Shown piece after piece: positions 28,197-29,651 of a stretch of 64,000 bases of DNA (positions are counted from its first letter, which is position 1; each line of letters begins with the position of its first letter). The stretch is from an uncultured Vampirovibrio sp. (lineage in GTDB: Bacteria; Cyanobacteriota; Vampirovibrionia; Gastranaerophilales; Gastranaerophilaceae), in contig CAJTXZ010000011.1 in NCBI GenBank assembly GCA_910583725.1, positions 6,219-70,218 of the forward strand, written 5' to 3'. Both the position numbers and the translations under genes were made by a program. The notes beneath the pieces are model-generated. The model was not told the origin of the DNA. It saw nothing but the letters and a program-made list of their open reading frames with translations, and did not search any database.

Positions 28197-29651
28197 TTAA
28201 ATCCGGCCTATTATTTTAAGTTCAAATTCAGGCGTAATTTCTTTTAAGCATATTACCGGAATGTCTGTGTATAATTCAGATACCAAAACAAAAAGCATGT
28301 GCCTCAAATGGTCTGGCGCCACAAGAACCACATCTTTTTCTTTTGAAATTTTTTCTATGGTTTTTGTAAATTTTTCAAATTTATCACCGTCTATTTTTAT
28401 AACACCTGTCGCATCGTCAATATTTTCTGACTCTGCTTCAAGCATTTTTATGATTTTATCATTTACTTCATAGCCGACAATTTCTTTATTTTCATTACAC
28501 AAAGACCAGCAAATCTGTCTTGCAAGTGAAACCCTTAATTTATCCAATAAATCAGCCTTTGAGGTATCATCTGCAAAATCATTAATCTTTTCGAAGATGT
28601 ATATTAAATCCTTAACGCTCACCCTTTCTCTGATTAATGAACAGAATAGGTACTTTAGTTCTGAAAGCGAAATAAAATCACCAAGAATATTATCCACTAA
28701 AAGTGCGTTATTTTCGCTAACTATTTCTATATAGCGGTTTAAGTCGCTATAGTTAAATATTTCATTTACACACTTAATCGAAAAATATTTTAAATACTGT
28801 GCGATGTACTCGCAAGGATTTAAACCCTTTAGCCAGTAATCCTTCGCTTCATCTTCAGGAATCCAGACAATTTTCCTTCCTGACATTGCGTCTATATCTT
28901 TAATTGTTTCTTTAGGATATTCCTTTAAGTTTAATTCATCCTCAAAATATACAATATGCTTTGGATAAGCCTGTGCCTTAATTACCGGTATGGAGTGAAT
29001 ATTAATTGTGAAAGCGTATTCTTCAAGCTCGGGGTTTTCTAAAAACAGAACCTTGGGTATTATGTATCCTACCTCATTTGTCAACTCTTGTCTTGTTTTT
29101 ACGGTTTCAGCCAAAAGGTTTGTTGCATTTTTTGGGTCGTTTAGTGAATATATTTCTTCGCTTAAATGAATCGAAAGCCGCTCTTCGCCAAGGGAAGACG
29201 CCATTTTAGAGGGAGACAACAAGCTTTTTAATTGCTTTTTAAGGTTATTTAATTCATTAACCTCTTTTGCTATTTCTTCATTTAAAACTTCTCTTTCATC
29301 TTCTTTGGCATTTTCAAGAAAATGTTTTATATCCTCAATTTTCTCTCGTTTTTCCCTTATCTTTCTTTGAAAATTCAGGCACAATTGATACGGCTCTTCC
29401 TTTGAATAGAGCATTTTTTCCATCTTTGTCTTATAGCCCTGAATATCTTCAAATTCGCTCTCGGATTTTGAAAATTCAACCTCTTTTACAAAAATAACAT
29501 TGTATACGCTTTTATTATCCGTTTCACCTTCATGAAGAGAATACAAATCCCACCCTTTTCTTGACATTGAATTCAAGATATTTTCAAGCGCCTGAACATC
29601 ATCAAACGGGCATGTTTTTATTAAAAATTCTTGTCTTGTACTTTTATACAT
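28197..29651 (-). CDS. soluble FlhA/SctV C-terminal (FHIPEP cytoplasmic) domain protein with a small N-terminal domain and coiled coil; no TM export-gate domain
   Basis: Residues ~160-484 track FlhA-C. EVGYIIPKVLFLENPELEEYAFTINIHSIPV matches the LGfvvPpiriRDn..L.p.eY.I.i.G.ev pattern. LFCSLIRERVSVKDLIYIFEKINDFA matches LL.E.VsIRDl..ILEaLad. The C-terminal VVLVAPDHLRHMLFVLVSELYTDIPVICLKEI matches the FlhA tail. No hydrophobic segments are present. Confidence 0.8.
   Translation of the reverse strand: MYKSTRQEFLIKTCPFDDVQALENILNSMSRKGWDLYSLHEGETDNKSVYNVIFVKEVEFSKSESEFEDIQGYKTKMEKMLYSKEEPYQLCLNFQRKIREKREKIEDIKHFLENAKEDEREVLNEEIAKEVNELNNLKKQLKSLLSPSKMASSLGEERLSIHLSEEIYSLNDPKNATNLLAETVKTRQELTNEVGYIIPKVLFLENPELEEYAFTINIHSIPVIKAQAYPKHIVYFEDELNLKEYPKETIKDIDAMSGRKIVWIPEDEAKDYWLKGLNPCEYIAQYLKYFSIKCVNEIFNYSDLNRYIEIVSENNALLVDNILGDFISLSELKYLFCSLIRERVSVKDLIYIFEKINDFADDTSKADLLDKLRVSLARQICWSLCNENKEIVGYEVNDKIIKMLEAESENIDDATGVIKIDGDKFEKFTKTIEKISKEKDVVLVAPDHLRHMLFVLVSELYTDIPVICLKEITPEFELKIIGRI

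Follow-up and report, generated by a model that had tools for sequence, protein, structure and literature searches.

The cytoplasmic domain at the C-terminus of FlhA and SctV (FlhA-C/SctV-C) is seen as the platform on which every flagellum and injectisome sorts its substrates and, to our knowledge, has been studied only as a cytoplasmic ring tethered to the export gate. What, then, does such a domain do when it is encoded on its own? The question is raised by a locus of an uncultured Vampirovibrio sp. that belongs to the Gastranaerophilales, a group of uncultured cyanobacteria that are non-photosynthetic and common in non-industrialised human guts and in many animals. The locus is part of a 64,000-nucleotide (nt) stretch, here termed the window (GenBank assembly GCA_910583725.1, contig CAJTXZ010000011.1, positions 6,219 to 70,218 of the forward strand), and all positions given below are those of the window. 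The gene concerned is the following:

28197..29651, minus strand: complete coding sequence of a soluble FlhA-C paralogue, with an ATG start, 484 amino acids (aa) and a stop codon (list of open reading frames)

The product, termed the window protein, is a cytosolic paralogue of the C-terminal half of FlhA in which the membrane domain has been swapped for a new N-terminal module. It is encoded by a conserved stand-alone gene found in at least 80 species of the Gastranaerophilales (Vampirovibrionia). The gene had been picked out in an earlier reading of the letters and open reading frames alone (the sequence-only reading), and the protein sequence reported there matches the translation of 28197-29651 exactly.

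Identity of the protein

The Pfam model FHIPEP (PF00771) matches the window protein with E=1.3e-42 and 146.7 bits, against a gathering score of 29.1, and the alignment pairs residues 128-476 with model positions 309-656 of 657 only. The NCBIfam models of FlhA (TIGR01398) and SctV (TIGR01399) give 128.6 bits against a cut-off of 772.1 and 92.2 bits against 692.25, respectively, and in both cases only the C-terminal half of the model is matched. As the Pfam threshold is passed and the NCBIfam equivalog cut-offs are failed, the window protein is a member of the domain family and not an equivalog of FlhA or SctV.

A phmmer search of sequences in the PDB returned CdsV of Chlamydia (6wa6, 1e-20), FlhA-C of B. 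subtilis (3mix, 2.6e-19) and FlhA-C of Salmonella (~1e-9). All matches are to isolated cytoplasmic domains or to the C-terminal half of full-length chains. An AlphaFold2 (AF2) monomer model of the full-length protein, with 27 family members as input, has a mean predicted local distance difference test score (pLDDT) of 72, with values of 70-90 across most of the C-domain. Compared with Foldseek, this model matches FlhA-C, MxiA, SctV-C and CdsV at E~1e-18, with target-normalised template-modelling scores of 0.6-0.7 (6ch1/6ch2, 4a5p, 7alw, 6wa6). The assignment of residues ~160-484 to the FlhA C-terminal domain, first made by eye, is borne out by these three kinds of match.

The polytopic FHIPEP membrane domain is absent, as had also been proposed; the partial Pfam match and the hydropathy profile agree on this. 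The window protein has no transmembrane (TM)-like segment. The 19-residue Kyte-Doolittle mean peaks at 1.55, at residue 451 in subdomain D4, and no hydrophobic segment of residues 1-160 reaches the TM threshold. Other kinds of relationship were sought as well. A Pfam scan at E<=1 gave no match to Bac_export_2 (PF01312), the FlhB C-terminal domain; the PADLOC defence-system models gave no match; and scans of viral contigs found no relatives.

An order-wide family

Over 100% of its length, the query aligns with more than 120 protein clusters of 481-490 aa, at 51-96% identity. Those with a name are called Gastranaerophilales, 'Cyanobacteria bacterium SIG30' or plain 'bacterium'. When the cluster representatives were searched exhaustively, the full architecture could be followed down to 32% identity. 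With one genome taken per GTDB species, a scan gave at least 599 pattern matches, 527 of them FlhA-C relatives, and the best 80 were examined. All of these 80 are full-length orthologues (residues 1-484) with 41-85% identity, each in a different assembly. The labels of the 80 assemblies are almost all Gastranaerophilales, Gastranaerophilaceae, Melainabacteria, Limenecus or Galligastranaerophilus. The exact window protein is also encoded in a metagenome-assembled genome (MAG), GCA_948958745.1, on contig CARDHN010000010.1. The sequence-only reading called the gene an orphan. It does stand alone, but it is not a one-off: it belongs to an order-wide family, and this family is one of several FlhA-C paralogue types in Vampirovibrionia.

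Orthologue-bearing contigs L050, L059, L061, L072, L074, L093 and L094 are labelled Alistipes senegalensis, Methanobacteriaceae, Muribaculaceae, Anaerovoracaceae or Heliobacteriaceae. Since at least one of them (L050) shares neighbours and synteny with Gastranaerophilales loci, the odd labels are taken to mark contigs that are probably mis-binned or mislabelled MAGs in the public records.

A 27-sequence alignment has a mean column identity of 70%, with invariant residues along the full length, the N-domain included. Such conservation shows the soluble family to be real and under purifying selection. A literature search found no description of a soluble or truncated FlhA-C paralogue.

Truncation of a normal flhA by an assembly error or a frameshift was considered and rejected. 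The same architecture and start are present in independent assemblies from many hosts and studies, and tblastn with the FlhA TM domain gave no match within 10 kb on either side of the gene in any of the 80 genomes. The full-length conservation, together with this absence of FlhA TM sequence, excludes truncation, frameshift and an adjacent split gene. The 5' region, which has a TATAAT 36-41 nt ahead of the ATG, is clean, and the start that had been judged clean beforehand is upheld by conservation of the N-domain from residue 1 in the >120 clusters and 80 genomes.

Domain organization

The window protein consists of a new domain, a linker and a new helix, fused to the post-TM8 helix, the FlhA_L linker and subdomains D1-D4 of FlhA. 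Its parts are listed here from the N-terminus:

29475..29651, minus strand: residues 1-59, compact beta-alpha-beta-beta N-terminal domain, DUF4177-like (AF2 and Pfam)
29394..29474, minus strand: residues 60-86, acidic linker (pLDDT 33-40 in the full-length model; 26% Asp+Glu)
29304..29393, minus strand: residues 87-116, family-specific charged helix (AF2 helix 87-114)
29181..29303, minus strand: residues 117-157, helix and linker with the motif L..L..LK..L..L.sP..M...LG (homologous to the post-TM8 helix and FlhA_L)
28200..29180, minus strand: residues 158-484, FlhA/SctV cytoplasmic domain with subdomains D1-D4 (Pfam FHIPEP, PDB sequence matches, Foldseek)

A compact domain of ~60 aa at the N-terminus had been proposed, with a resemblance to DUF4177. 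The domain itself is real: an AF2 model of residues 1-66 alone has a pLDDT of 91 and shows strand 4-15, helix 19-31, and strands 35-44 and 47-60. The DUF4177 label is weakly supported. The Pfam model (PF13783) scores 14.3 bits with the window protein (E 0.05), below the cut-off of 25, and among 36 diverse N-domains of the family it is the top Pfam match at E<=0.1 for 32 (best E 8.8e-5). It is the best label on offer for residues 1-59, though below threshold. A fold search of the PDB with the N-domain gave no significant match, the best being generic dodecin-like or ACT-like folds at E>=6e-3, and a literature search on the function of DUF4177 found nothing relevant.

The segment that follows was described at first as a Glu/Lys coiled coil of ~90 aa. 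What the models show instead is an acidic low-confidence linker (60-86) and then two helices, 87-114 and 117-145, the second of which is homologous to canonical FlhA. The linker is probably flexible, to judge from its modelled confidence, and at 30% within-family identity it is the least conserved N-terminal segment. Residues 87-116, which are 48% identical within the family, have no alignable counterpart in canonical FlhA. The N-domain and the new helix, with 45-48% within-family identity, are conserved as well as the FlhA-C part.

Alignment with Vampirovibrionia FlhA places the beginning of FlhA homology at about residue 117, exactly beyond TM8 of the canonical protein. In the aligned linker, canonical '...QQQLGQLDAVKQNMNELINPNRMYEKLGVDVLSVQVG' corresponds to '...KEVNELNNLKKQLKSLLSPSKMASSLGEERLSIHLS' of the window protein. 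The linker motif is NPxxMYEKLG in canonical Vampirovibrionia FlhA and SPSKMASSLG in the window protein, and distant family members still have NPEKMYE.

Residues kept and replaced

The linker is among the best-conserved stretches of the family. The 27-sequence alignment shows no change at P147, L154 or G155 and at least 90% conservation of M150. In FlhA rings one linker residue, Salmonella W354 or Vibrio W350, inserts into the adjoining subunit (PMC8213127), and M150 aligns at its position. Of the subdomains, D3 is the most conserved, with 53% identity within the family and 33% to canonical Vampirovibrionia FlhA, and D2 and D4 are the least conserved.

Residues with known roles in Salmonella, namely those of the chaperone/substrate dimple (D456, F459, T490) and of the GYXLI hinge motif (G368-I372) (PMC9431611), were mapped through an alignment that includes Salmonella FlhA-C, and their replacements were counted in 25 members of the soluble family:

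D456 (chaperone/substrate dimple): kept in 22/25
F459 (dimple): T/S in 22/25
T490: R/Q/N/E
H491: Y/A/L
GYXLI hinge motif: S-E-x-[LI]-[YI], with G368 replaced by S in 24/25 and Y369 by E

In the window protein GYXLI aligns with 'SEEIY' (164-168), and its 'GYIIP' aligns with GFLPP of Salmonella. In canonical FlhAs and in the paralogues of the MFDYK type described below, G368 and H491 are mostly retained; position 459 is still F/Y in canonical FlhAs. Docking of FliS/FliT/FlgN-type chaperones in the manner of FlhA-C, which had been suggested from the letters, is not favoured, since the residues equivalent to F459, T490 and H491, like the GYXLI motif, are replaced family-wide.

Origin and the canonical FlhA of the order

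The window protein has its origin in FlhA itself. This is argued by the homology that starts exactly after TM8 and carries the common linker motif, and by the best score, which is to FlhA of the Vampirovibrionales type (P0151, 135 bits); FlhAs of other phyla score 76-85 bits. In a neighbour-joining tree of 367 columns the soluble family is monophyletic with 96% bootstrap support and sits on a long branch. It groups with Vampirovibrionia FlhA-C with a support of only 52%.

A canonical FlhA, P0448, has 696 aa and eight predicted TM helices and is 65% identical to FlhA of Vampirovibrio chlorellavorus. Clusters of its kind (696-698 aa, many near-identical) are very abundant in human-gut assemblies. 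We infer that this type belongs to the Gastranaerophilales, the records themselves carrying no organism label. The canonical flhA lies directly after fliH, with cheR nearby, and the fliH-flhA order agrees with the gene order of Di Rienzi et al. (PMC3787301), who list two genes of the flhA COG that the first four Melainabacteria genomes all share, one of which lies between fliH and fliI. Non-flagellated Gastranaerophilales keep FlhA, FlhB, FliP, FliR, FliI, FliJ, FliE and FlgB/C/G (Soo et al., PMC4040986 supplement). Full flagellar gene sets are present in ~25% of Gastranaerophilales genomes, and the rest keep flhB, fliI and flgG (bioRxiv 10.64898/2026.04.24.720558).

Other FlhA-C paralogues

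A large undescribed FlhA-C family, here called MFDYK, is present in Vampirovibrionia with proteins of 560-780 aa (L011-L013 P0172, P0156; P0154-P0224). Their N-terminal domain of ~160 aa ('MFDYK..FA') shares 50% identity with the N-terminus of a 347-aa protein lacking annotation (L097:8134-9177), which is encoded directly upstream of fliH-flhA in the usual fliG slot and has no Pfam match. The N-domain is followed by 2-5 TM helices and then by a C-domain 44-59% identical to canonical FlhA. MFDYK genes also stand alone, away from flagellar genes. Shorter FlhA-C forms with two predicted TM helices exist, of which at least one, P0149 (L016), looks like a mis-called MFDYK gene.

Like the window protein, the MFDYK and short paralogues are Vampirovibrionia proteins encoded by stand-alone genes, in which the N-terminal part of the FlhA membrane domain is replaced by another module. 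They differ in that the MFDYK proteins keep the last TM helices and, mostly, G368 and H491, whereas the window protein, fully soluble, has diverged much further.

Non-canonical FlhA-C proteins with no predicted TM helix are P0195 and P0261 (414-423 aa) and P0250 (468 aa, Candidatus Eremiobacteraeota). One TM-free form, from an unassigned taxon, has an N-terminus that on inspection of its sequence looks like an excisionase/MerR-like helix-turn-helix (HTH), and the soluble form of Eremiobacterota has an unrelated N-terminal segment of ~100 aa. Reuse of the FlhA-C module may extend further than has been assumed. Among the paralogue types found, that of the window protein is the only one both fully soluble and conserved order-wide.

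Genomic neighbourhood

The 64-kb window holds no flagellar or injectisome gene. A search out to 10 kb from the gene in the 80 genomes found neither the flagellar genes probed (fliH, cheR) nor the membrane domain of canonical FlhA. On one orphan-bearing contig, CheR is encoded at a distance of 2.5 kb. The view of the gene as one that stands by itself, with no flagellar or injectisome neighbours, holds in the window and at ~100 orthologous loci.

A conserved operon partner was sought by all-against-all clustering of the open reading frames of the 80 loci, which gave only subclade-specific neighbours. ClpP is divergent upstream in 22 loci, and a 178-aa protein of no assigned family is encoded directly upstream in 21; a hidden Markov model of the latter had no match elsewhere. 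The remaining subclade neighbours include BamA/Skp, ROK kinase, DNA polymerase III delta/delta', PSP1 and GH77. In the window itself the following features lie on the 3' side of the gene:

25448-27361: GAF-GGDEF-HD-GYP gene, convergent with the FlhA-C gene (list of open reading frames and domain scan)
27365-27577: 70-aa Cys-rich protein with a signal-peptide-like N-terminus, between the GGDEF-HD-GYP and FlhA-C genes
27593-28069: 158-aa zinc-ribbon protein with predicted membrane helices, likewise between these two genes
28091..28128, no strand assigned: terminator-like hairpin (28091-28118) with T/A-rich flanks, between the convergent 3' ends of the FlhA-C and zinc-ribbon genes (consensus match only)

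The window gene looks monocistronic. The 3' hairpin is common to it and the convergent zinc-ribbon gene, which keeps its position in 84%-identity relatives. A consensus scan shows an 11-pair stem followed by TATTTTCTTT on the plus strand, and the element at 28091-28118 appears to be an ordinary bidirectional terminator-like one.

Within the clade of at least 63% identity, the GGDEF-HD-GYP gene adjoins the FlhA-C gene in three arrangements: convergent as in the window, co-directional (with a 79-bp gap in L107-L109) and 3 kb apart. The adjacency persists despite inversions (L022, L025, L107-L109, L019, L020, L004, L028). Four loci of more distant subclades (L005, L036, L037, L044) have GGDEF or HD-GYP genes no farther than 1.5 kb away, and most loci have no neighbour of this cyclic di-GMP (c-di-GMP) type. 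As the GGDEF-HD-GYP neighbour is limited to one clade and such genes are frequent in these genomes, it is treated as synteny or at most as a hint.

Farther away, the window contains two other features:

15381-17159: second HD-GYP gene (GAF-HD-GYP), 11 kb from the FlhA-C gene (list of open reading frames and domain scan)
2385-9188: Tad/Flp-type pilus cluster with SAF-domain CpaB-like protein, secretin, response-regulator/ParA-type TadZ, TadA ATPase, TadB and TadC

A large hairpin element

The window has two copies of a hairpin element of ~120-135 nt, at 29759-29886 and 53020-53132. The first had been placed 3' of the FlhA-C gene; its position is in fact on the 5' side, ~110 nt upstream of the ATG. 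The outer flanks of the element are conserved (CTTTTTTCTTGYAATGGA ... GGAATGAAAAGAARACATTTAA), and a second small hairpin is found at the tip. The inner stems are perfect over 24 bp and have wholly different sequences in the two copies, so the pairing has been kept by compensatory change. RNA folding gives z-scores of -9 to -11 on both strands. An Rfam search of the gene flanks that include the first copy (27900-30300) gave chance-level matches only.

The copy beside the FlhA-C gene is absent in 84%-identical relatives and present only in same-strain contigs. The element is strain-specific and lies outside the conserved features of the gene. Its properties suggest a mobile element similar to miniature inverted-repeat transposable elements (MITE-like) or an undescribed structured RNA.

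Possible function

The preferred reading, given a rough probability of 0.45, is that the window protein assembles itself into a soluble FlhA-C platform that works alongside the flagellar-type export apparatus of its lineage or regulates it, with a changed client specificity. Self-assembly would take place in the cytoplasm through the retained contact from linker to neighbouring subunit and through D3, much as in FlhA-C rings. The parts that appear related to ring formation are kept (P147, M150, L154, G155 and D3, as mapped from the alignments). The added N-terminal helix and the DUF4177-like domain may aid assembly and stand in for the membrane anchor. Once formed, the assembly would work in trans on the type III export apparatus, of which about a quarter of the order has the complete form and the rest an export core. 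Its role could be that of a soluble platform for holding or sorting, or of a competitor for the partners of the FlhA-C ring of the gate. Because the chaperone-binding dimple and the GYXLI hinge are remodelled, the client specificity would have to differ from that of canonical FlhA-C.

Several points weigh against such a role in export. Isolated FlhA-C of Salmonella is described as monomeric in crystals (PMC8213127), so that a soluble copy need not form a ring. The identity of the individual subdomains to canonical FlhA-C is 19-33%, and the remodelled chaperone pocket and GYXLI motif would fit a function outside type III export equally well. At the ~100 orthologous loci no linkage to flagellar or type III secretion system (T3SS) genes was seen, nor is any neighbour universal, those present being subclade-specific and mostly housekeeping.

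Some of the same observations can be read as signs of a platform repurposed outside type III export, which is the main rival explanation and held to be less likely. The FlhA-C fold would here have been co-opted as a cytoplasmic scaffold that persists regardless of the flagellar apparatus, with second-messenger (c-di-GMP) signalling or a different chaperone/client system as candidate settings. The gene is never beside flagellar genes, the residues that bind canonical clients are replaced together with GYXLI, the new N-domain and helix are conserved to the same degree as the FlhA-C part, and the family is widespread though most genomes of the order are without complete flagella. A GGDEF-HD-GYP gene also stays adjacent in one clade and close by at the four distant loci. 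However, this c-di-GMP neighbour is absent at most loci, and with HD-GYP genes so frequent (two in the window) its adjacency may be mere synteny. The FlhA-specific linker, which serves ring contacts and the engagement of T3SS partners, is retained, the flagellar export core is kept across the order according to the literature, and no alternative partner has been identified.

It is unlikely that, in a lineage that has for the most part lost flagella, the window protein is an autonomous cytoplasmic hub, that is, a self-assembling free oligomer of FlhA-C with a DUF4177/helix head that has its own clients, acts independently of the gate and is possibly tied to c-di-GMP. Such a hub would be one product of a broader, undescribed radiation of FlhA-C that takes in the MFDYK, HTH-fused and Eremiobacterota forms.

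A split FlhA is very improbable. The window protein would be the cytoplasmic half, with the membrane half supplied by a separate gene and the two re-associating through the N-terminal helix or domain. Homology that begins exactly after TM8 would suit a split, and the N-terminal module could, in principle, serve for attachment. But the tblastn search up to 10 kb from the gene in the 80 genomes was negative for the FlhA TM domain, the order has a full-length canonical FlhA with its own C-domain, and a recent split would have left the orphan C-domain much closer to canonical FlhA than it is.

An artefact or decaying remnant, be it a truncated or frameshifted flhA or a pseudogene, has only the missing membrane domain in its favour and is practically discounted by the invariant residues throughout, the agreement of independent assemblies, the lack of upstream TM-coding sequence and the clean 5' region.

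Comparison with known systems

With canonical FlhA and SctV the window protein has in common the FlhA_L linker and the four-subdomain cytoplasmic domain, including the linker motif, D3 and D456. It differs from them in the absence of the eight-helix membrane domain, of the FHIPEP loop and of a flagellar or T3SS operon, in the replaced dimple (F459, T490/H491) and GYXLI, and in the extra DUF4177-like domain and extra helix.

Export components are retained without functional flagella in the reduced flagellar export systems of the Buchnera type, where FlhA is a full-length membrane protein. A flagellar export component is likewise kept without functional flagella in Chlamydia, whose FlhA paralogue (Cpn0363/CT060) differs from the window protein in being a full-length membrane protein. 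The chlamydial flagellar paralogues are proposed either to take part in secretion or to work together with another T3SS (PMC2830194).

The nearest parallel in kind is FlhX (HP1575 of H. pylori, PP_4329 of P. putida), along with similar soluble paralogues of FlhB-C. There, too, the cytoplasmic part of a membrane protein of the export gate exists as a free soluble copy whose gene is separate from the full-length one, and FlhX is stated to substitute partly for FlhB in H. pylori (cited in 10.1101/2021.08.29.457346). FlhX is FlhB-derived, ~90-120 aa long, free of any added domain and often encoded within flagellar clusters, and homology with the window protein is not expected. The domain of the window protein being FlhA-C, the protein is an analogue of FlhX and not a member of that family.

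Implications

The database names of the family are 'flagellar biosynthesis protein FlhA' or 'FHIPEP family type III secretion protein'. With such names, surveys of flagella in this group that are based on Pfam, COG or KO can count a non-gate paralogue as flhA.

A natural soluble FlhA-C that is present order-wide, with the linker and D3 kept and the client pocket rewritten, amounts to a natural experiment. It bears on which parts of the platform serve ring assembly and which serve the choice of clients, on whether the platform can act in trans, and on the regulation of the export hierarchy by paralogues. A further question that it touches is what gut Melainabacteria use their reduced sets of flagellar genes for.

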